The notes: generated from the sequence alone by a model not told the origin. Counted from the whole stretch's first letter, positions 186 to 61,208 are shown. The stretch: 61,952 nt of DNA, filler included, from Asterionella formosa (GCA_002256025.1; 7 parts of 7 records of this genome joined end to end with filler, not necessarily neighbours in it); one strand, 5' to 3'. Numbers and translations: made by a program.

Positions 186-1802
186 TGTAATGGTGGCTGT
201 TGCGATTAAACGGAAAGTGATGATGAGCGAGCACAGTCTTCCCTGGTGAGGTACCACTGGTGCTGGTACGTGGTACCCTGGTACCTGGTAACATCAACTC
301 AGCAACCGAATTATATTCGCATACCGGTACATAGATGACGGTATGCTACTGGGAATAGATTCGTTTGTCTGCTTTTGCCTCCGCTTTCAAGTTGCGGTCA
401 TTTTGCTGAAATGGACAACGTCATGCAGGACAGGTGCTCAAAACGACTAAATAGAGAACGTCATCAACTCTCGCTTTGGTTGTGTCGACAGTGTCACAAC
501 TTGTTAGAGACTAAATAATTATTTCATCTAAACACGGAAACATCAAAACAAGGCAAATGGCTGAAAAAGACAATGACTGGGGCAAAAGAGGGGTATGGAT
601 GGCCTGAAGTTTTGCTCCTAACTCAAAATCATTCTCCTTTTCCAGCCAAAGTGATGAAAACAACCAATAATGAACAGTTCTAGATCAATTAGAATTTGAA
701 ATATTTGCATGCTAGTGTCATGATACATGACAGCTAGTAGTGGTACCCACTATAACTATTACACCATCATACCACCATATGCATGCTGATGGTTGGAATC
801 ATGCTGTTCAGGGAACCCAAGGTAGCACTCATAAGCGCTTGTATATAGTTACTTTGCTTAGATTACTTGATTCTTTTCTCTCTATATATAATATTTACCA
901 GTATAGCACTATGGAGTAAATGTGTAGTAGTTGTCATGAGCAGCTGGAGTATGCATGGTGCATCATGTCATTGCAGCCTTGACCATGATGAAATTAACAA
1001 ATATTTCCATGAACAAAGAAAATGACGCTTTGCTATTGGGTACTCCCTCTGTTTATGTATAGTTGCAACACACTCAGCAACTAACCCGGCTTGATCCACA
1101 GCATCCTTCAAAGAAGCCACATGTAGAAGCAATATACATTTTCTACGGGAGACAATGCAGGCTGTGGGTACATTGGTTAGATTAGAAAAACGAGGCGAGT
1201 AAAACGCTAAATAGTGATGCATGGGCGTTGTTTTGGGGCTTTTGATTTTCGTTAGCCAGCATACTGACCTGTGTATGTGTGTGTACATTCAGCAATTCTT
1301 GTTACCAAAATGATACAGCTAAATAAAGAAACAAGAATATGATTCCAGACAAAAAATATTTCGTTCTACAGACTTCGAAAAATATAGCAAACATTTTGTG
1401 CATGCCCGGACTTAGATGACAAGCTGGTAATGCATCATGTCAAAGGCCTCATCAGCCTCCCTTTTGAGGTTGCAAAACAAGCAATTCCTGGCGATGTACT
1501 GTTGCTGTTCTGGTGTTAATCTCTTCTACTTATGTCTATTGACTAACGAAGGGTCAACAAGAAAGGGGGTCCAGAGCAAGCATTCCGATCAGGGCGCAAT
1601 TTTGCGGAAAATGCGCAAAAAAAAAATGAAGTGAGGTTCACATACTTCTAGACTACTTAGAACATGATATATTCTATACATCATTCGGTTCGGAATACTT
1701 CTTAAATAGGAAGGGTCGTCTGTAAATAAAAAACCGTTAGGTCTAACAGTTTTGCTGTAAGACCCACTGCCACAAAAATTCTCAGTATGACGTATTATTT
1801 TT

Positions 1803-1915
1803 TGATTGATCATACAAACAAACTGATTGATCATACAGAACTACTGATTGATCATACAAAAAAACTGATTGATCATACAGAACTACTGATTGATCATACA
1901 AAAAAACTGATTGAT
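1803..1915 (+). repeat. 21-bp tandem repeat (about 5.4 copies) with a 42-bp higher-order period
   Basis: The core TGATTGATCATACA is followed alternately by AA(C/A)AAAC and GAACTAC. Units start at 1803, 1824, 1845, 1866, 1887 and 1908. Confidence 0.95.
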
Positions 1916-2099
1916 GTCAACTAACGTTTTGGTGTTCGATCTAAAGATAGTAACTGTGAGATCAAATCAGTTATTCATTTGGTCTAACCTTTGGAATGCT
2001 AATATCAAATAGAATTTTTATCTTTCAATCCAATGTTTATTACTACTGATCTATCTTATTTCTCTCATTGATCAAACTATTATCATGTTCGATCAATGA

Positions 2100-5000
2100 T
2101 GAACACAAATCGAATTCAATGGATTGCTATTTAATACTCAAATATTCTACTTCTGGTCACCCATACTTTCCACTGTGCATCCTCTATCAGAATGAGCACA
2201 CAGTGGTCTTCAATATCTTAATTTTCACTTCCGGTAGCTATGTTTAGATCATTGCCTTTTCAAAATTAAATGAGAGAGTAAACGAAATTGATGATGCTTT
2301 ATTCGAACCTCTACCATTGCGAATGGCAGCAAGTCACATTCTCCAATGTTCTTGTACGACTTTCCTGTAAGAGATAATAACAACAATGTCAGCAAAACTG
2401 TTGCATCAAGTAAGCTAGGCAGCCATCTATACGAAGATATGTGCAACGAAACGATCACATGAACAATCCATCTCTCCAATTTCCGTATGAACAGGCAATG
2501 TGCATATAACTTACGTGTGCTCTCATGCTGGTTGATTGTTGCTTCTATTAAGAATTGTAGCAAGCCACATTCTCCAAGGTTCCTGTATGATTTTGAGGAG
2601 ATAATATCAATGTTAGCAAAAGTGTTGCAACGATTAAAGCATCTCCAGCCACAAATGTGCCACTAACTGATGACATAAACAATCTATATCATAGTAAGAA
2701 CTTCACGTCGTTCCAATCGACATAACGAGCATCAAATGAGAGTATAGTAACTTACCTATGCTCTCACTGTTAATTGATGGGTGACAAGTCGCGTTGTTAA
2801 CCCTCACATCTGCATATATGGAAGGTAAAGATGTTATTAATGTCGAAATCTTAATTAATAGACACAGACAATACAAAAAATCGGCAGCATTGTGCACAAA
2901 CATTTTAAGTGCGGTTTCTTACCTCGTAAATAGGTTGATTTTTATCGTTCGTCCTGAGGAAGTGTAGAAGCTTTGAGTGGCAGCAGCGCACACAAACAGC
3001 GACACAATTTTATAGTTTGCTTCTGGTCTCACATGGTACCGATCATAAGCCCCTTGGTAGCAACAGTTGAGAAGCAAAACAATCATATAACTCTCCTCTT
3101 CTCACCGGTTGGTTTGATGCCAGTAGAAGGCTCTCTATCACCATTCACTCATCAGTTTGTGATGTGGAATAGAATGCACTACCGGTTTGAATTTTTTAAC
3201 GATATCTCAACATTTCCTCTTCTTCAAAAAGTGTGTATAACATACATCTCTGTATGTCTAGTTACTTTTTCGAAGGAGCTTTTAATACCCTACCAGTATG
3301 TATGATTAGATAAAATATACAAGACTTAACAGGAATTCGAATACCCGGTACTGTGAAACTGTACCTATTACTACGCTGGTAGTTTGCCCTACCAGCATTC
3401 CCTTCTTCCCCTTTTCTCAATACCCGGTCGGAACATGACGTGGTGGCTACGGTGAAACTGTACCTAGTACTACCGGTAAGCTGGTACTATGAAACTGAAG
3501 CTTTGCGCCACCAATCTAATGTCTATAACTGAGTATGTTGGTGCTGCATCGCTTCCAATCCAGCACTTGCCCACTGTCTAATCCTATAGTTGACAGACAA
3601 TTATCCCTTTCTGCTTCCTTGTTCTGTTACAGTCACGTTTCTCTTGACAACTTGCCATTTGCACGCTATCGATAGTGCCTTGTTATCTGGAATGGTAAAT
3701 GTTCCGATTGCTACAAATAATGGAATGATCTTGGTTGTGATGGGGTTACCGATCACAGATTTTTCAATCAGGAAAAACGTGTTTCTATGGCGTATTTTAT
3801 GTCTGTTCAAGAGACAACGGAAGAGCAAGGAATGACTCTTACCGGTTAGATACTTTGATCATGATGACAAAGGCAAGGAGAAGAGACTAGATGATGACAG
3901 TGTCCAGGATTCTGTTTTCAACAAATTCTATGTGGTCCTAGAGTCTGGCTTGTTTAACAAAACATCATTTGAAACTTCAAGGAAATTTCGGAATCATATA
4001 GGACCAGCGATGATTTTATGGAAAACTCACTTTCCTCGATATTTTAGACTACATCAGAAAGACAACAATATGCCACCAAGTATACCCATGAACTAATCCA
4101 GACTGGCGACCATGTCCTGTTTCAATTTTTCCAACTCCTTACTGGATAAATGGGACAAATCACTTTCCTCCTCGACCTGGCTGTTCTTTAGTTACTTTCC
4201 GATCACTCCTACAATTTCGGAACTCTTTCAAACAAGTCATGGACTGCTTCTTACGGATTGGCAACCACGCCTGGATTTGCCTTTAATTTTGCATTTTGTT
4301 TTGCTTTGGAAGGGGGAGATTTTATATCAAGTCTATCAGATTCGATAGACTTAATTAGACGCTTTGAGGAAGTAGAAACAAGATCTACCACAGGCATACA
4401 AGAAACACGATCTTTACTTCTTGGAATGGTATTGGGAGAAGATGAACTGGTATCAACTATTTCGTTTTCACTCGCCTGTGTCAATGCATAAACGGAGAAT
4501 ACACAACATCGGTGATATTTTTTGGAATGACAGGTATGACAAATTCCATCGGCTTTTCAGGAAAACAAATTTCCCAATTTTCGCAATGGTTCACAAATGC
4601 GGCCGTTATTGTGCACAGAAGCTCGTTCCTCTTTTCTTTTGTATCAATACCAGCACCAACAATATTAGTAAAAATACAGGGATCATTTGAAACGCCCCAA
4701 TAAAAGAGAAGTTTATCCACATCATTGGACTCATTTCGACAACCATTGTTGTCGTATGACATTGGAATCAGCTATTGATTGAATAATGGTTCTGGTACCC
4801 TCATAAATATTTTACACTTCTTCGGATTGGCGGGAACATATGTGTGGGACAAGCTACACTACGTCGTAGATATAAGCTATATAAATATAGCGGTCACTTT
4901 GTGGAAATTATGTGTGTGGCAATTGGGTAAGTCTGTCCTATTTATTGCCTCTGATGTTGCCGATAAAGAGATTTCTTAAAACAATGGGATAGTACAATGT

Positions 5001-5600
5001 TATTAAGCAAAGTTACAATTGTTATATCGAACCCCATGTTATTCAAGGTTCATGTGGTGCTATTTTTTCCTGAATGAAATGAAGCTCCTTCCTGATTAGT
5101 GATGTTGCGGCTCTAATTCTGCAGCATTCAAACTTGCTCGTCAATAGCTAGTCAATGAGAATGGAAGAACCATGATTAAGGCCATGAGCAACAAACTACG
5201 CCGCCATCTGGTCCATCTTTACTTTGATCCACCTCTCATCTTGAAGAACAGATTCGAAATACGGATCGATGTTCGCAAAGGGCGAATTATGATCAAAAGG
5301 TATTATCTTCTTGATTTCGGTTGGAATTAGAATCGGGTATGGCCTTCAATGCATTGTTCTCCAATTCTGTCATATAAATTGACCAAAGCTTTTGATTTCG
5401 AGTAACAAACAAACAATCAAACTTCGCCAGAATAATTCCCCATCAATATCGAGACCATATCATTTGTTATAAGACTGAGATCATCGTCGTCCCCACAAGA
5501 AGGTAGCTCCTAAGGGATTGTTCAACAAACGCACATGGCTTGTAAGAAATTCGATTACTGTTATGCAAATGGAGAGATAATGACGAATACTACCAGTACA
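2100..5600 (-). pseudogene. Highly degenerate coding remnants inside the TIR element; product not identified
   Basis: A chain of short protein-like minus-strand ORFs (4481-4762, 4251-4484, 3601-3828, 2249-2563) is broken by many stops. GTAAG donor-like sites occur near 2756 and 2922. A segment is internally duplicated (about 2330-2430 vs about 2561-2650). Confidence 0.35.
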
Positions 5601-5806
5601 AGAATTGGATCAAAGCATGTACCGGTAGAGCATTCAAATCGGAATGGCAACAAGGAACGCACCCTTGTTGCACAGAATTCATTCTAATAGCATCGTTGGG
5701 TACAAGGTTTATATACACGTAAGGTGATCTGTGTAAAGTCATAACCTTCGCAAAAACAATAATTGATCAAAGAGCAACAACAGCTATTGATCAATCAAAC
5801 AACGTA

Positions 5807-6161
5807 TCAATATATCAAAACATTTGGTCAGCATATAGTTTTTATAACTAATATATATGACTTCTATCTATGCATAAGCTGACGTGTGTGAGAAAATATT
5901 CTGACAATCAAATTTGATTGACCACACCGACACGGTCATTGATACATCAAAATTATCATCAACATAACACAACATTTGATCAATATATCAACAATTTGGA
6001 ATAACCAATTAGATTTGGTAACTAATATATACGAGTTCTTATATACGCATAACCTAGTAACATGGCTGTGTATGCTACTAACCTAATGTACAACTTTGAT
6101 TGATCATACAGACACGGCTGTTGATATATCAAAATTATCATCAACTTATCAAAATATTTGA
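5807..6161 (+). repeat. Diverged tandem duplication of about 175-180 bp (subterminal repeat)
   Basis: 5807-5979 and 5980-6161 share the ordered blocks TCAATATATCAA, TAACTAATATATA, TTTGATTGA, GACACGG and TCAAAATTATCATCAAC. Confidence 0.8.
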
Positions 6162-6756
6162 ATAATCAATCAGTTTTTTAACATATGCTGAGTAAATCGT
6201 TAGATCTAATGGAAAATCTATTCACAGACAGTTGTTAGCCGGGTAAGTATTGGAGGTTGCGCTTCATGGGAGGCAGTGACCTAACGTTTGGTTGCAACTA
6301 TACATGAACAGAGGGAGTACATATATTAAGCACAATTTAGTAAATAAAATTGTAAAAGAATAGTTTTAATAATTCTAATTGAAATTGCCAATAGCTCATT
6401 CAAACTCTGTTTCCTTAATTAAATAGTTATTATCAAAAAAATTAATTAATCGAAGCCATTTTATCAAGTGTATAGTACACATTGCAAAGATGTGCATTTT
6501 GCCAAATGCTAGTTCACATCGGCCGGCCAGTCAAATATTGAGGGATAACAAATATACATGTCACTATCATAATTATTAATGCAATAGCATAATTGTAGTA
6601 TCACATACATCCTACAGTAGGTGTACTAACATCGACCATTCTACCAAAATGAGCATACTGGTGTTTCTTTCCTTCCCACCATCTTCACCTGTGCAATACC
6701 TAATCAAAAGCAAGTTGTCATTTTTAAACTTTTCTATTGCTCCTCATATTTATGTT

Positions 6757-6990
6757 GAGGATAGATGGTTCGAAAAAGGGGGATCATGCATCTACATTTT
6801 GCTTGATATGGCCATACGCGAAAATCGAAAAAGCTGAAAAACATCTTTTGAAACCTGTTACCTGGTACCAGGCAGTTCTTGCTAATTTAAAATTTACCAC
6901 ATTTATGTTATCGGTATACAAAGATCTGTGACTTGTGTGCTTGCGCTCACCATTAGGGCAATTGAACAGGAGAAAGTCGTAGGAGTCAAA
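6757..6990 (+). repeat. Dispersed repeat (transposon end), homologous to 17445-17655 on the other strand
   Basis: GAGGATAGATGGTTCGAA...GAAAATCGAAAAA...TAGGGCAATTGAACAGGAGAAAGTCGTAGGAGTCAAA aligns with the reverse complement of 17445-17655 (GAGAATAGATGGTTCGAA...GAAAATCGAAAAA...TAGGGCGATTGAGCCGGAGAAAATCGTAGGAGTCAAA). Confidence 0.85.
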
Positions 6991-8448
6991 CTGCCAAAGG
7001 AGAAATTTTTAAAATCCCCGCAACTATTTCATACCAGTATTTTCAACCGGGAGTGCGTACCAGGCACTCCCTGGCACCTGGTGAATACCTGGTGAGTATC
7101 TTGTACTGGGTGCTGGTACCAGGTACAGGTACTAACCTTTATAATTGACAAGGGGAACAGGTTGAACCCAGAAATTACCGCCTTAGTACCTCGGTATAAC
7201 GAAATACCGGTACTGGTACTCGAAGTAGGTTCCGGTACTTGTTTGTAACTACCGGTAATTGCCTATGATAAACCGGAAAATGCACACATGAAACCATACA
7301 TACGATACAGCGATACAGGAACCTGTTATCTTGAAAGCACGACCAGGATCTTTCTTTCTATTAGCTACTACCAGCTCTACCGTTGTACCGATAGTTGGGC
7401 GAGGATTGTCCAACACTTGTCCAAAAATACAAATGTAAGATGTTTTGTGTCCGTATGGCTGTATCGGTAGTAGAGTGAGGGAGTGCTCCATACAGTTTAT
7501 AAATCAATCGAGGATGAAAAGATAAAAGAGATGCTCCACCATTTCTCGTTTCGGTGATAACCTGGTACCAGGTACTACAAACAAAGCCATCCAATTCGTT
7601 CTATTTGAATTCAAGTGGATGAGTACGGTACAAATAAACATGAAATTTAACTGTCGGCCGGCCGGAAGTGCCGGTGCGATTTCTCGCGTCTTGATCACTA
7701 TTGTATGTGCGCCAGCATGCGAGTAGCGTGCCACCTCGTCGTAACGTTCGTCTGTAAGATCCTACTGCATTTTCAATCCTAAATGCCTCCCGAAGTCGTT
7801 GACTAAACTGGTGTTTCCGCGACGACTGGATTACCGGTATCTCGTTGACGCACCGACATGCAACAAACTTTAAAAGCACTGCCATCACGAGAACTCCTTC
7901 GTTTAGGTTCCAGTAAGCGTTGCAAACTCCTTTGTAGGAAGCGAAACGGACGCAACGCTTGGCGATCAACGGAACAAAAGCAGTTGAGGCATTTGCTCTA
8001 TTGTTGGTTTATCAAATTACACTTGATCAACGGAAGCGTTGTCAATATCCATCTTTAATCGGTAGGTGCCAAACAAATACATGAAAATGACAACGTATTT
8101 CGATCGATGATGAGGCCGCAAGCAAATTCGAACGATGTCCCTCCATGTCATGGCGCTCCTTAACAACACTGACTGCATTGCACTGACTACGATACTATTG
8201 AGTACTGCAGCATTTGAATATTCGACTCGTTATGGGAAAATCGCATATCCCGGCACGTACATATTTTCTATGTATGCGTTGGACTACCGTTGTCGCTGCC
8301 TGATTTTCAAATGAATATACTTTTATTCGTGTACAGATAAAATTTTGTCCATTTTCTCGAAGACTCACTTTGTTCCCATCGTCTCATTGCTTGCCAATGT
8401 CAGTATTAAGGTAGAGTGTTGGCGTTACAGCTGTCTACTGATAATACC

Positions 8449-8780
8449 ATGGCGGCAACTGAAAGCAAACCGAAGGGGCTGGGACCAGACAAGAAGGAAG
8501 CGCCGGCAACTATCGTGACACTTGAATCAAAAGGGAAACAAAAACGGGAAGACAACGACGACGCCGGTTCGAAGAAGAGTGACTCGTCGGAGAAGCGAGA
8601 TGAAATCTCCTTCCGTCAGGCTCGAACGCCAAAGCATAACAACAAGTCCACGGCGCTGACAGACAAAGAGAAACAAGATGGTGTGGCAAAGCCCAGGGAG
8701 TTGCAGTACCCCCCGCGACATCCCGGCGCATATCTGACAAATTCGTTTACTGCTCGAGAGCAACCGCAGCACCAGCAGTA
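8449..8780 (+). CDS. 5' part of a hydrophilic protein, truncated by the contig end; product unknown
   Basis: ATG at 8449 in good context (ACCATGG). The frame MAATESKPKGLGPDKKEAP... is open to the gap and has coding-like composition. Confidence 0.55.
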
Positions 8781-8880
8781 NNNNNNNNNNNNNNNNNNNN
8801 NNNNNNNNNNNNNNNNNNNNNNNNTTAATTAATTAANNNNNNNNNNNNNNNNNNNNNNNNNNNNNNNNNNNNNNNNNNNN
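8781..8880. other. Artificial contig spacer N44-TTAATTAATTAA-N44
   Basis: The linker at 8825-8836 has stops in all six frames. The same 100-bp structure occurs six times in the window. Confidence 0.97.
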
Positions 8881-9118
8881 TGGTGCTCGCTCGTCTGCCA
8901 CAGCATCTGGCAGTTCATAGCTCTGGAAGCTGAGCAGCCATCGCTTGGCAGCAATAGTATCATTTTGTCGTTGAGAGGATCATTGGCTGTGTCGTTCATC
9001 GTTCAGGCTGTTGTTAAGATTATTACTATGATTCCATTTCATCCTTTTATCTATATAACGTACCGGTAGTTGCCGCTGTCTGCTCGAGTATCACATCATA
9101 ATACTGATACAAGGAATC

Positions 9119-15975: not shown

Positions 15976-17391
15976 GGCAAGGAAATGAAGTAACTAAATT
16001 AGCGTTCTCGTATCTGATCAACGGGCAGCAAAAACAGAAATAACGGCAACTGTTTTGAGAATATGTCCTGTAAGTTTTCGACTTCTATATTGGCTTCGTC
16101 CCTGCGTCTTCTTGCTCCTCGCTGATGACGAATAGCTTAGATTGTCTGTCTGGATGATTCCTTTGCAATGTGGGGAACAGTGTTTTCTCACAGGGTGATA
16201 GTGGATTCACTGATGATTTGTGTTGTTCTGTCCTTGCGTTTATTTAATGCACTCTCCACTCGCTTCAGTTGACTCTGGTTGCATGGCTACGGCACGGAGT
16301 ACGACGTCCAGGTACCACCTCGATACACCAGAGTAGTACATTTTTGTTCAAAATCGTTCATGTACGACAGCTGAGCGATGCATACATAGAGCAACATTCG
16401 GATTCGATACTCCATAGAAACAAACAGCATGAAGTCTACAGGATGCACCTACAGTACTATTATATACTGAGTACCGGTAAATGTATCAGCTTTTTTAACA
16501 CTGTTCAACATGATTGTATCCTCGTCGGTGCATGTACCGGTATGTAGGAAACTGATCTAGGGATCGCCGAGTCTTGTACATAGGATCAGTGCTGCTGAGC
16601 CACTAGGAATCGGATAAAACATCAGTTGGCGTCACCAAATCAAACGATGATTGGTCCACAAACAAGAATGCAAGTTCAAAAATGTTCGAATTTAACGTCT
16701 GTGACAGTTACGACCTGCACACTATCGGTATGTGTTGTCAAATCATTCCAGGCAGGAGGACAACAGAGGTATGATGTGCACGTAGCTACGCATGTCCTCA
16801 TTTCGAAGCTACTGCATAATTCAGTGTCTTTGAGTGGTTCCCTGTGTTCCCTGCTACCTTTGAACTTCATCTTCGAATTTTTCGGCTAGACTGACTTAGC
16901 TCCCATGGTCGCTATCTCAATCTCAGCCGACCGTAAGTCTGTTCCTTCTGGGTTTCGAGTGCGCGCTTTGTGCACACTTCCTCTTTTTTCCCTCCTCTAT
17001 TATAAAAAAATGATTATCTCGAAGGATGTAGCACCTGGTACTTGGTCCCTGCTACTGGAATCTGGTACCAGGAATCCACTAAGGCCATTGCTAAAGGTGG
17101 ACCAAAATGCCAACCAATCAGTGTTTTGTTTTTGGCAACCCCAAAAAACGATGCTACCAGGAGTGAAAAACCCAATGCAAACGATTCCGTGCCCATATCC
17201 CAATAAGTTACCCAGATGCCTTATGTTTAGGTTTTTTTCCAAAGTTACCTAAATGTTGGATTCCATATTGACTACTTTGAATGTAGTCACTAGAAACCCA
17301 GTTATTATCATTGTAGAATCACTACATATAGGATGCATCATATGTGATATATATAACAACAAAAGCTATACTGTACTCTGGCAAAAGGGTA

Positions 17392-17655
17392 CTCCTTCTG
17401 TCCAACATCATTTGCATCGATAATTCAAATTTATCCGGGACCATTTTGACTCCTACGATTTTCTCCGGCTCAATCGCCCTATTGTGCGGCTTGCTCTAAG
17501 CTACAGAATTATGTATATATTATGTAAAGAAAGATTAAAATTGGCAACTACGTTTCAAAAAACGTTTTGGGGATTTTTCGATTTTCACTTGTAGCTACTA
17601 TCTCGAGCAAAATACAGATTCGGAGGACCCATTTTTCTTCGAACCATCTATTCTC
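17392..17655 (-). mobile_element. End of a Stowaway/mariner-like element, truncated by the contig end
   Basis: It begins TA-CTCCTTCTGTCC (17390-17403), similar to the TIR at 1043. The body is homologous to 6757-6990. Confidence 0.55.
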
Positions 17656-17755
17656 NNNNNNNNNNNNNNNNNNNNNNNNNNNNNNNNNNNNNNNNNNNNT
17701 TAATTAATTAANNNNNNNNNNNNNNNNNNNNNNNNNNNNNNNNNNNNNNNNNNNN
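17656..17755. other. Artificial contig spacer N44-TTAATTAATTAA-N44
   Basis: Linker at 17700-17711. Confidence 0.97.
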
Positions 17756-43090: not shown

Positions 43091-44260
43091 AAACCCTAAA
43101 CCTATGGTATATAATATTTTGCGCCTGGATTGGCATGTTATAATCACATCCACCATGTTGTTATTATTCTGTTGCTTTACTCAACAATAGAACATCCTCC
43201 CATGCCGCTTCAAATACCTTTCTTTCCTTCATGAGTAGCACTACTATTAAACACCGGAAGCGGCACGGGATGACACAATTGGAGTTGAAACTGTACAGGA
43301 ATGTCTCAAATAAGATCATATAGTAGTTGCAATGAAGATACAACAACAATTTCACTTCCATCGCTGTGCAATGGACTTCGATTTCATGTTCATCATGAAT
43401 GAATGTAACGACGACAACAACGAGATCCCGGATGCATGTGTACATAAACTTAATTCACATGTTTGTTATTTTTATAGAACATTTTACTTAAGCTAATATT
43501 ATGTTTTACTGGTAGCCAGAATTATTTTGTACCGGTAGCTACGATGGCTACCCTATGTAGTTTCATGATGTATCCAGCCATATGTAGGGATACCGTGTTA
43601 AATTATAAACTGGGAATGAGCTGAAATACCGGCCTACTGTCCGTAAATTTCTACGAAAATCAGCGTAAGTGTCCGGTAGTTATCTGATGTTGACGGCTCC
43701 AACCCACGAACCGTTATTATAAATCACGGTTCTCGTGTCTCCGTGTGAGCCAACGACGACTCGATATGGAGTCAAGCGGCCCGTTTACCTTGTTGTGGGG
43801 CAATAGCAAATTACATGCACGGGACTAATAACAATACCGGCATACTTGATGGCTCAACTCAGGCTTTCGCGACACCAAATGGGGGTCATGCAAAGAACGG
43901 CGTACGTTTAGAAATAGTTCTGTCACGCTGCACTTTAGGAAGCATTTTGAAAGAAACCCAAGAGGACTAAAGATACAGTATATATTTCATCAATGTACAT
44001 ACCGTTTATGTTTATGTACTATGGTACCTGGTACGTGGAAGCACAAACAACGGCGCATGGCTATGCTGCCATTGAAAATTCATTTAGCTGGCGGTAACTA
44101 GCGCTACCTGATGCTGGTACTTTGTGCACTGTACCTGCATCTACATTCTTCAACGGCCGATGACGAGGAGGGGAACACGGATTGCACGCTTACGTTCCCA
44201 TTGCTATCTCTTATGTATACGTCATATCAGCTATCAGGTGTCACACTTTACTCTCGTATA

Positions 44261-44360
44261 NNNNNNNNNNNNNNNNNNNNNNNNNNNNNNNNNNNNNNNN
44301 NNNNTTAATTAATTAANNNNNNNNNNNNNNNNNNNNNNNNNNNNNNNNNNNNNNNNNNNN
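44261..44360. other. Artificial contig spacer N44-TTAATTAATTAA-N44
   Basis: Linker at 44305-44316. Confidence 0.97.
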
Positions 44361-45206
44361 ATTGTAATGGATGGATGATGTGATGATACCGGTATATCGG
44401 GGATAGTAATCGTTCAAGCCGTGTTATCACGATAAAGTTACCTGTGTTCAGAGTTTTGTACCAGGTGTGCCTGTACCAGGTACCAGTAGGTGCATGATGG
44501 TAGTAAGCACAGCATGGCTGAGCGATGGAACAATAAAAGCAAAACAAACAACAGATTGGTCTCAATATTTTCAGCTAAATCGGATTAACGCTAAGAAATA
44601 AAATTCGGAACAACAAGCCGGCCGGGTTGGATTTTCGATCGGATATTAGAAAGAAACACATGTATCAAGTCAGCCGGGTTGGTTTATTGATACGAAATTA
44701 AAAAGAAGCACATGTATCCATTTGGACGAATTGCTTGGAATCAGAATTGCCGACACGAAGACGTTGGGAGTTGCACTACCCCAGTAGGTAGCTATGCCAA
44801 AATTCAAGCACCTTGCTGGTACTCAGGAGTCTCATATTGCACTGACGACGGCTCATGGGCTGTTCGTTACACACACATTTGACGATCATCAATTAGCGAT
44901 CTATGAAGACATACGATCGCTAGATTCCGTACATAGTAAATGTATTATATGTGCTAAGTTTATGACGATACCGAATTACACCAAGAGTAACAACACTCAA
45001 GACAAATGCAGCGGGTGTAGTGAACCGATGCCGACGCACCGCCTGCATTTACCTGCTGTGTAAGATAGTTGATATTGGTATCCGTTATTATAAAAGTCGC
45101 ATCCCACGATCAAAAAGGAGGCCACCAAAAAACCAAAATAGGAAATCATCACCTCATAATTTCACTTTGTCCACATATTTACGTCAACACACATTTAACG
45201 AAAGTC

Positions 45207-45884
45207 ATGTTTTCAAAGCTCGTGATTGCTTTTCTCATGGCGTATCTCGCCCGGGCAGATGATATGACACCATTGTCCGCCTGCCCTCTTGATCCTCCTA
45301 CCTCTTTCAATGTCACCTGTGCTGTCAATCTCACTTGCTCATGGACCCTCGAAGGTAACGGGGTCGAAACTTGTACCTGTGAAGAAGAAGGTACTATTCA
45401 ATGCTACGCCCTTGCTCCTCCCATTTCTGTCATTTCAGTATCGACATGTCCTCCTGATCCCATTTTCACAACCAGTGATGGTCCCATTCCTACTTGTTCC
45501 AACATGTCTCTCACTTGCGAATACGAGCGGGAAGTGGAAAACCCAGATGCAGTCGGTGGATACTCTTGCTATTGCAATGAAGAAGACATCTTTACATGTG
45601 GCATATGGGAGATTTTGGCGGCTACTGCTGTCCCTGACTACAGTGTTACACTTGCACCAGTCTCTGACGACACTGTTACACCACCACCAGTCCCAGACTA
45701 CACTGTTACATCTCCACCAGTCCCAGACTACACTGTTAAACCTCCACCAGTTGTCAAAATGGGTATGAAAAAGGGAAGTAAGAAGTCAACCAAGTCGATG
45801 AAGGCGAAGGGACATAAAAAGGGAACGAAGAAATCTAAGAAAGGAGGCAAAGAAGGCAAATATATCCGCGGTCGTGCGCTTTAG
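45207..45884 (+). CDS. Secreted protein with 2 six-Cys modules, Pro/Thr repeats and a Lys-rich tail (225 aa), paralog 1
   Basis: The true start is ATG 45207, supported by the signal peptide MFSKLVIAFLMAYLARA and its match to the paralog at 47132. Module pattern CP...C...LxCx(W/Y)...CxC...C. The tail ends KKGGKEGKYIRGRAL. Confidence 0.88.
   Translation: MFSKLVIAFLMAYLARADDMTPLSACPLDPPTSFNVTCAVNLTCSWTLEGNGVETCTCEEEGTIQCYALAPPISVISVSTCPPDPIFTTSDGPIPTCSNMSLTCEYEREVENPDAVGGYSCYCNEEDIFTCGIWEILAATAVPDYSVTLAPVSDDTVTPPPVPDYTVTSPPVPDYTVKPPPVVKMGMKKGSKKSTKSMKAKGHKKGTKKSKKGGKEGKYIRGRAL
45630..45749 (+). repeat. 30-bp coding tandem repeat x4 (VPDYTVTxPP)
   Basis: Units at 45630, 45660, 45690 and 45720; consensus GTCCCAGACTACACTGTTACAYCTCCACCA. 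Confidence 0.95.
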
Positions 45885-47131
45885 TGCTCTTCCCTTCCCT
45901 CAGCTTTTCAGTCAATTCTTATTGAATCAAACGAGTTTCATACCAAAAATAGAATTGATTTCACATATTATGTTTCAAAGTAGTAAGAAGAAATTTAAGG
46001 AGTATACTTGCAATTAAATTCAACAAAATATGTGCATACTTCTCACATGAAAAGCTTGGCGTGAAATGAACAGCATCCGTGTCTAATTCAAGCATGATTT
46101 TCTCATTAGTTTGGGATCAAACGCACAATTATATTCCACGACTCATTTTTAATTATTAAATACCGGTGGATGGCATTACTATGTAGCAACCCATCGTCCG
46201 GATGATAGGATAATATCTCGCTGGCTCGATTCAGGGATCGTCCAGACTTGCAATCAATCATCACTTTAAGTAGCTGAAGGACGCCGTTTGTGTTCTTAGA
46301 TTGTTGTACCCATGAATCTGGTACTCCGGGGTACCTGGTGAGCGATCTCGCTCAACTACAGACACACCTATAGGGATAGGTTTACATAGATATCTCAGAA
46401 CTCTATCAGGAGCGAGAAAACTCGACTAACACCTATTTGAATACTTTAGCGCCAACCTAGGAGATCGAGTTGCACACAAGCAAGGATTAACTAATAAGCT
46501 CATATATTCAACAAATAATAATACTTCTAGTTAGATACTTCACCTGGTAAATGGGGGCGGGAGGGGTCACGATTTTACGGGATATTTTCGTGTGAGAAAG
46601 TCCCGCTGTGGTATAAAAATTGGCAGAACAAAGGAGCGAAATCAGCCATCACGTCATAGTTTAGTAAGTACTATACCGGTAGTAGCGAGGAAATAAAAAT
46701 GGTACATGATACTGTACATGGTACCCTGGTACCAGGTACTAGACGATATGAAACACACAGGTTCATTCGTGTCACCTTATTTTTTTAGCAACGACCTGAA
46801 CGGCTGGCTCGAATCGAAAAATATAGCATCATATCAAAGCAGTGTACTTAGACCAACATTTTGCACGACCTATCAAACGTCACACCCACGAGCAAAAATG
46901 AAAGAAAGCGAGTTTTTCAACTTTTGCTTTATAAAGAATATAAATACCGGTATACTGTTTAAATATATTATTCTTGGAGACTACCGAACAAGAATATATG
47001 ATGGCTGTGTGTGGAACAACAATCACATGGTAAAGCAATGTCTTCAAAAATCAAGCAACGAAGTCAAAGCTCATAATTCTCACCAAATATTGTTCAACAT
47101 ATTTTTTAGTAAACACCAATCAACGAAAATC

Positions 47132-48079
47132 ATGTTTACGAAGCTCGTAATTGCTTTCCTAATGGTATCTCTCTCCCGGGCGGATCAAATGGCACCATGG
47201 TCCGCCTGCCCTCTTGACCCCCCTGTTGATCCGATGTCAAATATCACGTGTGAAGTGCCTCTCACTTGCACGTGGCCCATCGAAAATGACGGGGTCGAAA
47301 CTTGCACCTGCGAAGGACAAGGTCTACTTCAATGCATAGCCATGCTACCACCTCTTTTTGTTAACACAGTGTCTACTTGTCCCGAAACATCTCCAATCAA
47401 TGCAACGGATGTTGAGAGCTCCATCACAGTCACGATTTGCGACACACCTTTGGAATGCACCTGGCCCCTGGACATTGCGAATGGGGTTGGGACGCAGACT
47501 TGCAAGTGCGAAGCGAATGGCGAGTTCAAAGATTGTACCATGCAGGCCGTGGATGTACCTATTTATAGGGTGTCGGAGTGTCCTGACACACCTCCTTCAT
47601 ACAATAACACTTCGTCAACCCTCATTTGCGACAAACCTCTCAGTTGCTCGTGGGACATAAGCGGTGAGGACTGGGTTGGTGGCGAGACTTGCACATGTGA
47701 AGCAGCTGGTGATGGATTCACTCAATGCATTTCATTTGCCAATCCCGCGGTATTTGTTACTGAATGTCCTCCTGCTGCCATTTTCCCAGCCGCCGTTGAT
47801 CCCATTCCTGTTTGTACAAACATGTCTCTCAGTTGCGAGTACGAACGATTAGTGGAAACTCCAGATGCAGTTGGAGGGTATTCGTGCTCCTGCAATGACG
47901 AAAAAGTTTTTACTTGTTACATCTGGGAGGCGCTGGCGGCTACTGCTGCACCCGATGACAGTGCTGCTTCCACAGTTGATGGGTTGGGAATGGGTAAGGC
48001 AAGCAAGAAATCAAAAAAGACGAAGAAGTCTGTCGGAGGAAAGAAGAATGGCAAGCATATCCGCGGTCGTGCAGTGTAA
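47132..48079 (+). CDS. Secreted protein with 4 six-Cys modules and a Lys-rich tail (315 aa), paralog 2
   Basis: The true start is ATG 47132 (signal peptide MFTKLVIAFLMVSLSRA). The first and last modules match paralog 1. The tail ends GGKKNGKHIRGRAV. The 5' UTR is also similar to paralog 1. Confidence 0.9.
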   Translation: MFTKLVIAFLMVSLSRADQMAPWSACPLDPPVDPMSNITCEVPLTCTWPIENDGVETCTCEGQGLLQCIAMLPPLFVNTVSTCPETSPINATDVESSITVTICDTPLECTWPLDIANGVGTQTCKCEANGEFKDCTMQAVDVPIYRVSECPDTPPSYNNTSSTLICDKPLSCSWDISGEDWVGGETCTCEAAGDGFTQCISFANPAVFVTECPPAAIFPAAVDPIPVCTNMSLSCEYERLVETPDAVGGYSCSCNDEKVFTCYIWEALAATAAPDDSAASTVDGLGMGKASKKSKKTKKSVGGKKNGKHIRGRAV

Positions 48080-49821: not shown

Positions 49822-50242
49822 TGTATGAATAAAAATGTTGCTAATAATACTCCACTGTCGGACTGTAATAAGTGAGAAGCTGATTGATTATTGAGTAATG
49901 ATAATCATGATCATTTTAAAGATAAAACATGCTGTCCGTCCCTGTGGTATTTTGCTTGCCCTGCTGCTGATGCAGCAGTACAGTACCGGTACTACCGGTA
50001 GTGTACCAACTGATGGGACCGGAAATTATGTTTGCATTCTGGAAATGTTTTATTAGTCTACCATCATTTACATGTCGTAGGAATACTGTATTCTGACACC
50101 GGTATTACCGGTTGTTGGATTATTTACTACCCCTACATCAAAACATGATGGGCTGCTTGCAAAAGAAAATCGTTCATCTATTTTCGTTATAACACTGCAT
50201 GCTAGGTTATTGTCACTTTCGAATAGAGTCTAGACTACTTTT

Positions 50243-50362
50243 CTTAGGACGCTGTTTTTGCCTTGAAGAGGGTTGACCTCATACTCATATGAAAAGGATA
50301 TGCTTAGGACGCTGTTTTTGCCTTGAAGAGGGTTGACCTCATACTCATGTGAAAAGCGTATG
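50243..50362 (+). repeat. 60-bp tandem duplication
   Basis: CTTAGGACGCTGTTTTTGCCTTGAAGAGGGTTGACCTCATACTCAT(A/G)TGAAAAG..TATG at 50243 and 50303; 3 mismatches. Confidence 0.97.
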
Positions 50363-53106: not shown

Positions 53107-53206
53107 NNNNNNNNNNNNNNNNNNNNNNNNNNNNNNNNNNNNNNNNNNNNTTAATTAATTAANNNNNNNNNNNNNNNNNNNNNNNNNNNNNNNNNNNNNN
53201 NNNNNN
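53107..53206. other. Artificial contig spacer N44-TTAATTAATTAA-N44
   Basis: Linker at 53151-53162. Confidence 0.97.
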
Positions 53207-53360
53207 TATGTGGAAAAATTCTTAACATAATTTCACTCCACTTCAAAGTTACTGAATACCGGTACCTCAACACAGCAATCATACATTCAGAGGAAATCAA
53301 TCTCGCTCTGCTTTTCCATGTGTGCAAACTACCGGTAGTTACCGGTATAGTCGCTCCCTC

Positions 53361-54767
53361 ATGGCGTGGCCATCATCTCGTTCAACACCCAACGAACCCG
53401 TTAGAACTCCACTATATGATACCGGTATTAGTCTTCCATTACAGACCGAGCTAGTGCACATCGTGAGTCACAACCATGACACAAGTGCCGACAACGACGA
53501 TGGCAACGACGGCAATAACTATGCCTCCATATTACAGGTAAAGCTACAAGAACAAGTACCATTCGAACAAACCACTGAATCTCTGCTACAAAATCATGCG
53601 CGTCAGCAGCAAGGCACTTCCTCCATTCAAGCAAGCATTCACTTGATCAAGGGATACATTGGTCCCGGGTGTCTGTCCTTACCATGGGCCTTTTCTCAAC
53701 TTGGCGTGATCTGGGGGATTGTGGCATGTGTTGTGCTCAGCATCTGGACGTCTTTTTTGGCATGGACGATCGTTCGAGCTAAACTTCCTGGAGAAACCTA
53801 TCCCGACATTGTCACAAGGGTCTATGGTCCTTCCTTTGGTTCCTACCTAAGAAAATGTATTTGTTTTCAACAATTGGGGATTTGTACCGTCTTTGTAACC
53901 TTTGTGGGCCAGAACTTACTAGCCATACAGGCGGGCCATACTGCAGCATTCACCATGACTTGTGTCCTACCCATTTTACTAGGAATCACATGGTATGCCA
54001 CACCATCTCTTCAAATTATGGCACCCATGACAGCAGCAGCAACTGTCCTGTGGGGAATCGCACTGCTGTTGATGGCCGCTGTGATTTTCGACGAATGGTC
54101 CCAGAGACCACGTGACCATGACACCAAGATAATTACTGCTGATGCTACTCCTAATGGGCCACTCATGGCACTATGTGCCATTTTATACAGTTTTGAAGGA
54201 ATTTGTTTGATTCTTCCCATTGAATCTTCCATGACACAACCGAAGCACTTTCCAATTGTATTTTTCTCTAGTATGACAATTGTAACACTTGTCTTTTGTG
54301 TCATTGGCTCCATATGTGTCCTTTGTTATGGACCTGTCATAACCAACGGCAGCATTACTGCCTACATGTTGGAACAACCACATACATCATCCAATGGCTT
54401 GGTGCTGTTGTTTGCAAATACAGCTATTAGTATGTCAGTCCTACTTACCTATCCACTTCAACTCTTTCCTTGTTTGGAACAAATGCGGGGCTGCCCAAAA
54501 CAAATTGGACTTGTCCTCCTTACCTATAGTATTGCCATGGCAGTCCCTAACGTACAATCATTGATATCCTTAACTGGTGCTTTGACAGGGTCATCAACAG
54601 CCTTGATTGTTCCACCTTGTTTGATTCTCATGTCTCAGCAACGACAATCTGACGTAAACACAAATGTCATGATTTTGTACATGATAATGGTGGCTATCGG
54701 AAGTGCTTTTTTAGTGATTGGCACATTTGTATCTATTGTAACAATGTTTCGTGTGCCATTTGTCTAA
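53361..54767 (+). CDS. Amino-acid transporter, Aa_trans/AAAP family (SLC36/PAT-like)
   Basis: IHLIKGYIGPGCLSLPWAFSQLG, LYSFEGICLILPIESSM..P..F, GSITAY and LLTYPLQLFP, with about 11 hydrophobic segments. First ATG at 53361. Confidence 0.93.
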   Translation: MAWPSSRSTPNEPVRTPLYDTGISLPLQTELVHIVSHNHDTSADNDDGNDGNNYASILQVKLQEQVPFEQTTESLLQNHARQQQGTSSIQASIHLIKGYIGPGCLSLPWAFSQLGVIWGIVACVVLSIWTSFLAWTIVRAKLPGETYPDIVTRVYGPSFGSYLRKCICFQQLGICTVFVTFVGQNLLAIQAGHTAAFTMTCVLPILLGITWYATPSLQIMAPMTAAATVLWGIALLLMAAVIFDEWSQRPRDHDTKIITADATPNGPLMALCAILYSFEGICLILPIESSMTQPKHFPIVFFSSMTIVTLVFCVIGSICVLCYGPVITNGSITAYMLEQPHTSSNGLVLLFANTAISMSVLLTYPLQLFPCLEQMRGCPKQIGLVLLTYSIAMAVPNVQSLISLTGALTGSSTALIVPPCLILMSQQRQSDVNTNVMILYMIMVAIGSAFLVIGTFVSIVTMFRVPFV

Positions 54768-54932
54768 AGAATACTACCGGTACTACTACTAGTAGTTAAT
54801 ACAATAAAGCTGAATGTGACAATAGGATTATAAAATAATTCATACTCTGCCATATATCATTTGATGAAATTCATACTATTATAGATATATAGATACTAGA
54901 TTGTAAAATGACTTTCCCAGATCAATTCAATT

Positions 54933-58453: not shown

Positions 58454-58669
58454 AACTCAGTTGGATACCGTAGAAGGCGGATTCCCATCATTGTCCATCT
58501 CTGAAAGTGCTGCGCACTATACATTTAACGATCCTTTTTTCCATTCGAATAACAACTAGTAATAAAATGAAACAAGTTCATGTCCACCTTTGTTTGTTTT
58601 ACCTAGCGGTGTATGTCTATCTATACTACCGTTAGATAGTTACATCCTGTTCATGTTTCAGTCATCACT

Positions 58670-60067
58670 TTATTTTGCAGCAAACAGGTCTGCTACATCC
58701 TTGACACTGATTTTCTTCTGGTCACCAGTAGCTTCATCGTGCCACAAAAGCACTTGCTGAAATGCCGTGGCGAGCTCATGTGCCGTCGGTCTGTCAGTAG
58801 GGTCCAATCGATAACATGACAGCGTACCAAAGAACAATCCCTGTGATGTTAAATCATTGGATTTGAGATATTTGCTTGGAACATGAGGCACGCCGCCCTC
58901 TAGTTTCTTACGTGCCACTTCGTCCAATGTCAACCTGCCATTTGGTTCCAACCATGTCCATGGTTGATGCTTCGTCAACACTTGAAACAATACATTGCCC
59001 AAAGCGTACAGGTCCGTCTTTTCTGACACGTACGTTGTGTTTGCGATCTCCTCGGGGGATCGCCACAGTTTGCTTTCAAATCTAACAGGATAGCCACAAG
59101 GTTGCGTCTTGTTCCATCTTAACATGGCGCCAATGTTAAAATCGTTGTACTTGATTACATGATCATGTGTGTTGACAATATTAGCAATATTAATATCATT
59201 GTGAACAAAGGTGGAATTCTTTCCCTCGACAAAGTCCAATGAATGAACATGGTTTAATCCAATCGCCAAATCCCTAGCCAGCACAAGTCTGTCTCTGGAC
59301 GACAACGATTTGTCTTTTATCAGTGATCGACCATCTTGTGGTGCCCACTCCGTCAGAACGGACTGCCCGCAAAAGCCAAATGATTCCACAATAAATTGAG
59401 ACCACGTGAGCTGTTCCATTATCCTGGCATCTACTTGATGATATCCAAACGATTCTTGGTCAAATGTACGATGGAGGTGGAGCATTTTAAGGACCAGCGG
59501 TTTCTCGTTGCGTGATACTTTCCACACCGACCTCCAAGATCCCGATAGTGATAGGAGAGACACATCGTTTGTTTCAATTTCATGTAGAATGTTGCAATTA
59601 GGATGATGCGTCCGCTGCCAATCTGCCATAGGAGTGCAGTCGTTAACAAATGGTCGTTCATAAGGTTTGATGTAGTGATTCGGGTCAATGGAAGGGGCGT
59701 GCGGTTGGGCGTGCCTCGTAGGAAGGACCGCCTTTCGCGTGAACGGAACATGGCGCGGCTCTAGTAGAACGATTCGGGGCCGGTCGTCGTGGTGAACGCT
59801 GGAGGTGGGTCTCACATCTTGCAGGTCTAAATGGCGAATCTTGGTGGAAGGAGTTGTCCGGAGCAGATAGCCGCTTCTGTAGCTGGGTCCTCCAGCGAGG
59901 AATTGGCTAACAAGCTCAGTTGTGGTAGCGGCAGGTGGATCAATAGTCAACAGGAGACCCAGTGAAGAAACAGCACCCACAAAACACACAATGGCCCATT
60001 GGCTCGACAGTCTCGCCTTGCGACACAGTGTCAGTCGTTCCATTCTTTTTATTTCTGTTGCGGGCAT
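58670..60067 (-). CDS. Protein kinase with an N-terminal membrane anchor and atypical motifs (465 aa)
   Basis: GSWRSVW (Gly loop), LVLKML, VHNDINIAN (catalytic loop), NDFN (for DFG), WRSPEE and TDLYALGN. TM segment WAIVCFVGAVSSLGLLLTI. Confidence 0.9.
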   Translation of the reverse strand: MPATEIKRMERLTLCRKARLSSQWAIVCFVGAVSSLGLLLTIDPPAATTTELVSQFLAGGPSYRSGYLLRTTPSTKIRHLDLQDVRPTSSVHHDDRPRIVLLEPRHVPFTRKAVLPTRHAQPHAPSIDPNHYIKPYERPFVNDCTPMADWQRTHHPNCNILHEIETNDVSLLSLSGSWRSVWKVSRNEKPLVLKMLHLHRTFDQESFGYHQVDARIMEQLTWSQFIVESFGFCGQSVLTEWAPQDGRSLIKDKSLSSRDRLVLARDLAIGLNHVHSLDFVEGKNSTFVHNDINIANIVNTHDHVIKYNDFNIGAMLRWNKTQPCGYPVRFESKLWRSPEEIANTTYVSEKTDLYALGNVLFQVLTKHQPWTWLEPNGRLTLDEVARKKLEGGVPHVPSKYLKSNDLTSQGLFFGTLSCYRLDPTDRPTAHELATAFQQVLLWHDEATGDQKKISVKDVADLFAAK

Positions 60068-61208
60068 TTACTCCGAAACGACTTGACCTCGCTTGGCTTG
60101 GCTTGGCTTGGCTTGTATCTTATGTTTAAATTTGTATGATGTATGCAAACTCTGCACAGATAAAATGCAAGGATGGCCTTGCTAACCACGGTGAATAAAG
60201 GCCCTTTGGGATTATTATCGCAGTTCGAGCGAAGATGGTAAGAAAGCATGATCCCAAAATTAATACCGGATCAAGGAATGAATCCGTTACCATTTTCGTC
60301 ATCAGGCTACCGGTACTAAATATCTACCGGTAGTTTTGAATTGAAGCGACCATCATAAATTCATTACCGGCACCAGGTACACTGATACAAGGGTACCAGG
60401 TACCAGGTACCTAGTGCCAGGTACAACCGGTATGTATAAAGTGCCTTGGCGGTACATGGTACCTGGTACTGGTACAACGTGTATAATGGTACACGCACGT
60501 AGAAGTAATTGTTACTGTATTCTTGTTTTTATATATGTCCTGTACATATGGGTCGGACATTTCTACATACTGGTAAAATAATACTCTACATACGACATGT
60601 ACAACAGCATTTGAGAGGGCGTTATACAGTAGGTAGACCACGACCGGCAGGCACGGTTAGTATGGAGGAGTGCTACATGGTAACCTACCAGGTATGTTTG
60701 GCGGCAAAATAAATACCGGTATATTCATTCATAGATATATAGTATGTATGTACCGTATACAACGAATGATAAAGCATGTTCGCTCGTCGCGCCATTTATC
60801 TTGATGCAAAGGCAGAATGCAACGACCGTACTAACTACCAGGTACCGGTAAGCCAAAAGAAAGATTTTTGTTATGATCATGGTAGATGGTAGGATGCTGA
60901 TTTTCCATTTGCTACGGTACGGGTACCAGGTACCAGTTATATCCGGTGCTCAGTAATCTACCGGTAAGCTGTCTGTATCAAATTACAAGTGGTCTCGCAT
61001 CAACCCTTTGTAACTAGCCTTGGGACGACATAGATATGACAAGCGTTGTTCAACTACCGGTAGCAGAATTGCTTTTCCAGTAGCTAGGTCTACCTGGTAC
61101 TCCGGGGTAACCTACGGTAGATACCGGAAGTAATCAACATCATGTGGATCATAACCACTGTATAAATAGTGTAATAATCCAGCAACTTTATGTGAGTTGT
61201 CTTGTCCT

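Follow-up and report, generated by a model that had tools for sequence, protein, structure and literature searches.

What role, if any, does a single 8 bp palindrome play when it recurs about once per kb of non-coding DNA in a diatom? The question is raised by a 61,952-nucleotide stretch from Asterionella formosa (GCA_002256025.1; hereafter, the window), in which the word TACCGGTA is accompanied by relatives carrying an additional A or T at the centre (TACCWGGTA, where W is A or T; the W-forms). Seven pieces of ~8.77 kb make up the window, with artificial linkers (44 N, TTAATTAATTAA, 44 N) between them and three internal N gaps. A sequence-only reading of this DNA had offered two interpretations of the palindrome: (i) a eukaryotic counterpart of the cyanobacterial highly iterated palindromes (HIPs), generated by methylation or repair, and (ii) a chromatin or promoter mark. 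We find that exact copies of TACCGGTA are concentrated immediately upstream of genes and that the word is identical to a predicted promoter motif of oomycetes. We give about an even chance to the proposal that TACCGGTA is a general promoter-proximal binding site of a putative homodimeric DNA-binding protein, not specific to any one pathway.

Abundance and anatomy of the palindrome

The excess of TACCGGTA is a real and very strong feature of the window. The word occurs exactly 33 times, an excess of ~80-fold, whereas 100 dinucleotide shuffles gave a mean of 0.29 copies and a maximum of 2 (none reached 33). It is the commonest canonical 8-mer of the window, with its W-form relatives ranking next; TACCWGGTA is present 18 times against a shuffle mean of 0.23, a count reached in none of 100 shuffles. 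The sequence-only reading had counted at least 33 copies of TACCGGTA by eye, and this number proves exact (0.3–0.9 expected), the positions it had named being completed by 40593, 46945 and 53420. It had also placed the motif on six of the seven pieces, which a count per piece bears out; the piece without a copy is 26631–35397.

Markov models of orders 0–3 predict 0.28–1.8 copies of TACCGGTA, and those of orders 4 and 5 predict 7.8 and 22.5. The latter expectations are high because the motif is part of the 60 kb on which these models were trained, and they learn it; when the 8-mer is masked in training, orders 1–5 predict only 0.16–1.33 copies in DNA outside open reading frames (ORFs), where 32 are seen. 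The k-mer enrichment claimed earlier thus survives Markov correction (32 versus 1.3 at order 5, motif-masked, in the non-ORF DNA of the window).

The enriched unit is the complete 8-mer. There are 128 CCGG tetramers in the window, 33 with TA on both sides and 21 with TA on one side; since the one-sided count is near chance (~18), the half-word is not enriched. Nor is CCGG or CCWGG enriched when bare of TA flanks. TACC and GGTA are separated by no bases in 33 cases, by one in 19 (A or T in 18 of these), by two in five and by three in one. Counts of TA-flanked centres, set against an order-2 expectation, are 33 versus 0.42 for CCGG, 18 versus 0.46 for CCWGG, 16 versus 2.1 for CCAG or CTGG, and 4 versus 0.09 for CCCTGG. 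The overlapping arrangement GGTACC is found 38 times (6.2 expected), and direct repeats of GGTA with a 7 bp period 23 times (0.76 expected). Among single-base variants of TACCGGTA, the CpG transition TACCAGTA/TACTGGTA alone stands out (16 versus 2.1 expected), followed by TACCTGTA/TACAGGTA with 7 copies. Other words of the frame TAC-NN-GTA number 0 (TACATGTA), 1 (TACTAGTA) and 0 (TACGCGTA) in the window: this organism uses the CG-centred member of the frame only. The palindrome does not extend to 10 bp, complementary flank pairs being present at 11 of the 33 copies, which is about chance.

Close spacing is seen in five pairs of TACCGGTA (8, 9, 10, 14 and 17 bp); no two copies overlap at a shared TA, which would put them 6 bp apart. 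According to Tandem Repeats Finder, the W-forms are mostly short tandem heptamer arrays, (GGTACCW)n, of 2–7 units; the motif family therefore has two components, namely (i) the isolated or paired 8-mer and (ii) the heptamer arrays. The concatenated clusters described in the sequence-only reading are real, and consist of short arrays of this 7 bp period. One W composite, GGTACCCTGGTACCWGGTA, is recurrent, and a 28-nt composite recurs eight times (repeat family D4).

Position upstream of genes, and parallels elsewhere

Outside ORFs of at least 100 aa lie 31 of the 33 copies, and 32 are non-coding once the start at 47132 has been corrected (alignment with the neighbouring paralogue places the true start at residue 143 of an over-long ORF). 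The copy at 46945 falls in this spurious ORF extension, leaving 53420 as the only copy in a coding sequence, as had been claimed. Upstream density was measured in the 300 bp preceding 14 confident starts, using corrected starts; these regions make up 12% of non-ORF bases. They hold 13 copies in 3.7 kb (3.5 per kb), compared with 19 copies in the 27.5 kb of remaining non-ORF DNA (0.69 per kb), one in 20.3 kb of ORFs (0.05 per kb) and none in the 8.8 kb of a retroelement-like piece (density 0). That 13 of the 32 non-ORF copies should lie within 300 bp of starts is a marked excess (3.4-fold; p=3.9e-5). At least one upstream TACCGGTA is found at eight of the 14 genes, 21–265 bp from the ATG, and the Pfam-matched members of this set, among them a transporter, a kinase and a JmjC protein, are functionally unrelated. 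Regions downstream of genes carry three copies against 2.7 expected, equivalent to the general non-coding level.

The surroundings of the upstream copies also differ in CpG content. With the motif masked, the observed/expected CpG ratio is 0.90 within 300 bp upstream of starts versus 0.66 in other non-coding DNA, and TG+CA is raised to 1.28 in distal non-coding DNA. This pattern suggests CpG methylation outside promoters in this diatom; methylation of CpG probably exists in the genome, because the distal DNA is CpG-depleted and the main variant of the palindrome is a CpG transition. The CpG-transition variant is found 0 times upstream and 13 times distally, versus 13 and 18 intact copies (ORF-based calls; Fisher p=0.004). 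One-off variants at the six outer positions total 21 (5 upstream and 16 distal), where the ORF rate of ~0.2 per kb predicts roughly 6.

The same word is known from another stramenopile lineage. In Phytophthora infestans, TACCGGTA is M94 and TACATGTA is M93, both high-confidence promoter motifs, with 4150 promoter copies of M93 (Roy et al. 2013, PMC3597505). The inverted repeat motif-9 lies upstream of 1,284 Phytophthora genes, its presence correlates with expression, and RXLR genes are three-fold enriched among its bearers (PMC3520976); the Plasmopara halstedii motif streme-5, ATACCGGTAT, has been equated with motif-9, GTACCGGTA (PMC10031896). The oomycete motif (M94, motif-9, streme-5) thus shares with the diatom word the identical 8 bp palindrome and over-representation upstream of starts, and has been read as a homodimer site. 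It differs in being one of ~100 motifs, spread over 1,284 genes in three species and linked to infection stages and RXLR genes, whereas in the window TACCGGTA is the single commonest 8-mer, stands before eight of 14 unrelated genes, and is accompanied by CCWGG variants and heptamer arrays. The other Phytophthora motif, M93 or motif-1, has the same TAC-NN-GTA frame with two different central bases and is likewise very abundant, but TACATGTA occurs 0 times in the diatom window. Seidl et al. 2012 (PMC3520976) present motif-1 as a conserved inverted repeat of high abundance, whose form suggests a homodimeric factor, and propose Irx/TALE homeodomain proteins as its binders. In a 2024 study of P. 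infestans factors by protein-binding microarray, no word with CCGG and no TACATGTA is present in the text or in two supplements (PMC11267843). Our literature searches returned no paper tying TACCGGTA to diatoms, and one palindromic promoter motif from a diatom, ACACGTGC, of iron-regulated genes (PMC3491386).

A further parallel, by analogy and not by membership, is found in animals. The Drosophila DRE has the sequence TATCGATA and is bound by DREF together with TRF2. Like the diatom word, it is a TA-framed palindrome of 8 bp that occurs in many promoters (26% of Drosophila core promoters), at loosely restricted positions (PMC1635271) and without allegiance to a single pathway. The two differ in sequence, lineage and factor, and the window shows no sign of a DREF/BED-type protein.

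We also compared the window with 52 metagenome loci around transporter homologues (379 kb in total; 281 kb without duplicates). The pooled loci hold eight copies of TACCGGTA against 1.85 expected, so the extreme density is specific to this lineage; the word is nonetheless present in the independently assembled, diatom-like contigs L012, L037 and L043. Different palindromes dominate locally: TACTAGTA in L037, L041 and L046 (5–6 copies versus 0.05–0.2 expected) and TATGCATA in L025 (12 versus 0.27 expected), with TACATGTA present in L023 as four copies in 5.3 kb. The most enriched palindromes of the pooled loci, CTAGCTAG (17.7-fold) and AGCTAGCT (7-fold), are not TA-flanked. Taken together, 24 of 29 locally dominant palindromes lie outside ORFs, and 12 of these 24 are found no more than 300 bp upstream of a long ORF (7.0 expected). 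In L012 (13.6 kb), the only two copies of TACCGGTA form a pair, TACCGGTA-5-TACCGGTA, ~145 and 132 bp before the point at which the transporter homologue is estimated to start; this arrangement resembles the window pair at 53330/53340, a post-hoc likeness seen at one locus.

Several of these contigs (L025, L037, L041, L046, L023, L040 and L020) have over-represented non-coding words of their own (TATGCATA, TACTAGTA, TACATGTA, AGCTAGCT/CTAGCTAG and TGAGCCCA), often within GTAC-, CTAG- or GTAG-rich runs. Separately, L037 carries a TA-flanked, 287 bp element at 1525–1811 that resembles a miniature inverted-repeat transposable element (MITE), with 29-nt terminal inverted repeats (TIRs); it adjoins a TACCTGGTACCGGTA composite at 1819–1833.

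Binding site or by-product

Because TACCGGTA is densest upstream of genes and is identical to an oomycete promoter motif, a docking site for a DNA-binding protein is the most likely explanation of the word. The idea of a chromatin or promoter mark, put forward in the sequence-only reading, fits with both observations. In the mechanism that we propose, an abundant, putative symmetric-dimer protein would read TACCGGTA. Promoter-proximal copies would be kept by selection, in CpG-preserving and probably unmethylated DNA, while distal copies would decay into TACCAGTA as their CpG undergoes transition. The heptamer arrays, (GGTACCW)n, would be relatives expanded by slippage, with no link of their own to promoters. 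The sharpness of the palindrome, the side-by-side full sites, the exclusion from coding DNA, the position before unrelated genes, and the oomycete identity all speak for a binding site, and in our judgement leave that reading evenly poised between right and wrong. TACCGGTA is most probably a cis-regulatory word that is shared with oomycetes and has been amplified to unusual density in one diatom lineage, although a DNA-level generator may have made it.

To our knowledge, very few cis-regulatory elements have been described in diatoms. The presence of TACCGGTA before more than half of the testable genes, taken with the oomycete identity, points to an old stramenopile factor-and-site pair. Such a pair could be used in promoter finding in assemblies of uncultured diatoms, in isolation of the binding protein, and in the construction of synthetic diatom promoters.

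A number of observations weigh against a binding site. Upstream regions hold no excess of the W-form (2 of 17). The upstream test itself involves 14 genes with crude, ORF-based starts, and clustered copies are not independent of each other. Further, distal or gene-poor DNA with no recognizable genes contains 19 exact copies and 13 CpG-transition variants, which makes for many sites for selection to hold. One W-cluster corresponds to a discrete 20 bp indel between two copies of a repeat (~75% identical). Decayed copies may be lacking near promoters because CpG is preserved there in general, and not because the site is under selection, given the CpG ratios of 0.90 and 0.66 reported above. Finally, the modest decay cloud at the outer positions fits either the turnover of functional sites or the neutral decay of a recent family.

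Words of this shape may arise without any binding protein, for example as the excision footprints of a TA-targeting, Tc1/mariner-type transposon with ends 5'-CCAG(G). TA..TA would then be the target-site duplication, and the inner CCGG, CCWGG, CCWG and CCCTGG would be leftover terminal bases; local hopping would build the clusters and 7 bp chains, and the resulting neutral scars would accumulate at any place that tolerates insertions, with a preference for open promoter DNA. Every enriched variant can be written as TA-CCWGG-TA in which the CCWGG has lost or gained no more than one base. The footprint of Sleeping Beauty is TAC(A/T)GTA, and known Tc1/mariner footprints share with the diatom words the TA..TA frame, the few symmetric bases, the central A/T ambiguity in the odd-length form and, at one site in the window, what may be a small insertion. 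Several other diatom-like contigs keep the TA..TA frame around a different centre (TACTAGTA, TATGCATA, TACATGTA), and the 20 bp W-cluster is a clean indel between ~290 bp repeat copies. Neutral insertions are also compatible with the decay cloud, the scarcity of copies in ORFs and the lack of any in the retroelement-like piece. TA-flanked TIR transposons do live in this genome, because one such element with 28-nt TIRs is present in the window (1041–6319). However, two TIR scans of the 60 kb, one for TACC..GGTA ends and one for TA-flanked elements in general, revealed motif chains and this unrelated 5.3-kb element only, with no TA-CC...GG-TA element bearing real TIRs, and no transposase family was found among the 93 ORFs scanned. 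One-sided footprints are typical of mariner, yet one-sided TACCATA/TATGGTA is not enriched (4 versus 10 expected) and TACCATGGTA occurs 0 times. Close pairs of TACCGGTA never share a TA (8–17 bp apart, never 6). Promoter bias is not the same for the exact form (13 of 31) as for the W-form (2 of 17; Fisher p=0.05), where a single process should give one distribution, and the most enriched palindromes of the pooled loci (CTAGCTAG, AGCTAGCT) lack TA flanks. The density would also be unprecedented for such footprints. Seidl et al., citing Eide & Anderson 1988, note that Tc1 is known to leave taCATGta as a rare footprint, but they reject a footprint origin of TACATGTA on grounds of conservation and abundance (PMC3520976). 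On balance, we regard excision footprints as the main rival of a binding site but an unlikely source of the palindrome. A more general version, which we hold to be similarly doubtful, is that the diatom words TACCGGTA, TACTAGTA, TATGCATA and TACATGTA and oomycete M93/M94 are products of one active, sequence-specific DNA process and not conventional binding sites; the candidates for such a process would be scars of a TA-targeting transposase, or sites read by a domesticated transposase. Were this true, tens of thousands of copies per stramenopile lineage would record transposon history, and may have been co-opted at promoters. The shift in palindrome centre from one lineage to another has two possible meanings: a general factor and its site have co-evolved rapidly, or a transposon has left a signature that was taken for binding sites; in the latter case, the oomycete motifs would need re-reading too.

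In a HIP-like system, a methyltransferase, mismatch-repair or gene-conversion activity would drive CCGG/CCWGG palindromes, independently of any role in transcription. Like HIP1, the diatom word is an 8 bp palindrome and the most over-represented octamer, and it contains short methyltransferase-type sites, with CCGG inside the word and CCWGG in its sister form; distal CpG depletion (0.66) and the CpG-transition variant make CpG methylation probable. HIP1, however, is spread through coding as well as non-coding DNA, whereas the diatom word, in a eukaryote, is nearly missing from coding sequence (one copy in 20.3 kb of ORFs, against 32 in 31.2 kb of non-ORF DNA, although it can encode Thr-Gly without a stop codon), and its inner CCGG, like CCWGG, is enriched within the full TA-flanked word only. 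The deamination product TACCAGTA is enriched (16 versus 2.1), where a drive by Vsr-type T:G repair would predict depletion. The cyanobacterial genomes that carry HIP1, GCGATCGC, and the alternate HIPs encode the cognate methyltransferases (Elhai 2015, PMC4390886); the 93 window ORFs include no methyltransferase or Vsr family, a weak point that concerns the window only. We therefore find the methylation- or repair-generated alternative of the sequence-only reading to be poorly supported, and very unlikely to be correct. It is also quite improbable that the family is a functionless, low-complexity feature, made up of (GGTACCW)n microsatellites and their decay products, with the promoter bias as a by-product of simple-repeat survival. 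Heptamer arrays of 2–7 units do exist (263–290, 35791–35814, 60372–60424, 60451–60475 and 60922–60936), and both the 7 bp periodicity of GGTA (23 versus 0.76) and the eight copies of the 28-nt D4 composite are as expected from such an origin; but most of the 33 copies of TACCGGTA are isolated in unrelated sequence away from arrays, the derivation of a gap-free TACCGGTA from a 7 bp array needs a precise deletion every time, half-words are at chance level, and it is the exact form, not the array form, that is enriched at promoters. Lastly, the copies might all belong to one MITE or another family of dispersed repeats, or be artefacts of assembly or adapters; either would account for the high copy number and for nothing else. 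The 40 bp flanks of the 33 copies share no similarity, and the repeat finder returned no family covering the 8-mer copies (the 28-nt W composite alone was grouped). Because their flanks are unrelated, the copies do not form one MITE family, a possibility raised in the sequence-only reading; they lie in unique sequence beside diatom genes, on six separate pieces, as well as in the three independent contigs named above. Neither a repeat family nor an artefact is credible on these grounds.

Copies, genes and repeats along the window

The copies nearest to genes, on which the proposed binding site largely turns, are distributed over several pieces. In the first, a heptamer array (CTGGTAC x3.9, 263–290) and a TACCGGTA at 322 together occupy 250–329, 65–144 bp upstream of an inferred minus-strand start at 185. 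The copy at 9061–9068 lies 58 bp upstream of the ATG at 9119 (956-aa ORF, + strand), and two abutting copies, TACCGGTATACCGGTA, at 17949–17964 are 192 and 184 bp upstream of the ATG at 18141. The composite GGTACCTGGTACCGGTA (26150–26178) is ~200 bp upstream of a minus-strand start at 25974. A copy at 46945–46952 stands 187 bp before the true start at 47132, and the pair TACCGGTAcTACCGGTA (49984–50000) 170 and 179 bp before a JmjC/cupin start at 49821 (- strand). Three copies in 53257–53347 precede the ATG of the amino-acid transporter (53361) by 104, 31 and 21 bp, the last two forming the pair TACCGGTAgtTACCGGTA; the sole coding copy follows at 53420–53427 (+ strand), in codons 20–23 (D-T-G-I) of the unconserved transporter N-terminus. 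The densest region of the window (60308–61099; six TACCGGTA and seven TACCWGGTA) is a 1.1-kb spacer upstream of a kinase start at 60067 (- strand), and includes heptamer arrays at 60372–60424 (x7.3), 60451–60475 and 60922–60936.

Other copies are more remote. Two copies 63 bp apart (16472–16542) lie ~500–560 bp upstream of a NIF-phosphatase start at 15975 (- strand), and 46674–46742, comprising a TACCGGTA at 46674 and GGTACCCTGGTACCAGGTAC, ~400–460 bp upstream of the start at 47132. At 44387–44487, a TACCGGTA (44387) is accompanied by TACCAGG..TACCAGGTACCAGTA, and a single copy (54775–54782) occupies the 165 bp gap between two convergent genes (3'-3'). The gene-poor pieces 1–8780 and 35498–44260 yielded no Pfam matches among 45 ORFs, and despite this carry ~1 member of the motif family per kb. 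In the former are single copies at 3471–3478, 5620–5627 and 7832–7839, a cluster of degenerate CCWGG/GGTAC words at 7050–7257 (TACCAGGTA at 7117; TACCGGTA at 7205 and 7250), and the D4 composite CCTGGTACCAGGTAC at 7551–7578. In the latter are a cluster at 35680–35815 (TACCGGTA at 35701; heptamer array TACCAGGTACCCTGGTACCAGGTA at 35791–35814), a second at 40197–40312 (TACCAGGTACCCTGGTACC, plus a pair of TACCGGTA whose starts, 40291 and 40305, are 14 bp apart), and single copies at 40593–40600 and 43530–43537. An internal duplication at 40030/40335 is uninformative on the motif, its homology stopping before the cluster, and the listed indels of at least 3 bp between near-identical metagenome contig pairs contain no palindrome.

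The first two of these single copies lie inside the TA-bounded element at 1041–6319 (5,279 bp), which has 28-nt TIRs (CTCCCTCTGTTTATGTATAGTTGCAACA) with ends CTCCCTC.., presumably of Stowaway-like type. It contains a 21 bp tandem array (1803–1915) and ORFs without a Pfam match. The ~290 bp dispersed repeat mentioned above has two copies, ~75% identical, at 6757–7045 and 17395–17655 (reverse complement); their sole sizeable difference is the 20 bp block CTGTTACCTGGTACCAGGCA (6855–6874), present in the first copy and absent from the second.

The piece without TACCGGTA, 26631–35397, also has no TACCWGGTA and one GGTACC. The sequence-only reading had assigned to it a long interspersed nuclear element (LINE) free of the palindrome: the absence of TACCGGTA holds for the whole piece, but LINE identity is weak, the sole family match being to RVT_1 at 28223–28768 (E=2.8e-4, under the Pfam cut-off). 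A minus-strand run of ORFs is broken by frameshifts, GC skew is +0.2 to +0.38, and the observed/expected CpG ratio is the lowest of the window (0.59). A PDB sequence search with this piece was uninformative on its identity. The piece is probably a retroelement that has diverged, with a LINE as a weakly supported assignment.

The long ORFs of the window are seldom interrupted. Pfam matches show their products to be of ordinary eukaryotic kinds: an amino-acid transporter (Aa_trans), a kinase acting on proteins, a JmjC/cupin protein, a NIF phosphatase, a histone chaperone resembling Rtt106, and a member of the CTP_transf_1 (cytidylyltransferase) family. The best relatives of the transporter, its own protein excluded, are ~50% identical, and all named ones are from diatoms (Seminavis, Epithemia, Thalassiosira, Cylindrotheca and others), which points to a diatom source for the window. 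No Rfam match and no tRNA was found near the motif clusters. Two neighbouring paralogous genes, at 45207–45884 and 47132–48079, encode Cys-rich proteins with signal-peptide-like starts (MFSKLVIAFLM and MFTKLVIAFLM); the second has internal domain repeats, and it is the ORF from 46706 that over-extends this gene by 142 codons.

A second palindrome, TTAATTAA, occurs 15 times in the window against 0.6 expected. Since 12 of the 15 copies belong to the artificial linkers (8781–8880, 17656–17755, 26531–26630, 35398–35497, 44261–44360 and 53107–53206), its iteration is not genomic, and it was rejected as a second iterated palindrome. Non-coding tandem repeats unrelated to the motif are found at 38371–38775 (period 184 bp), 50243–50356 (60 bp) and 44614–44718 (52 bp).

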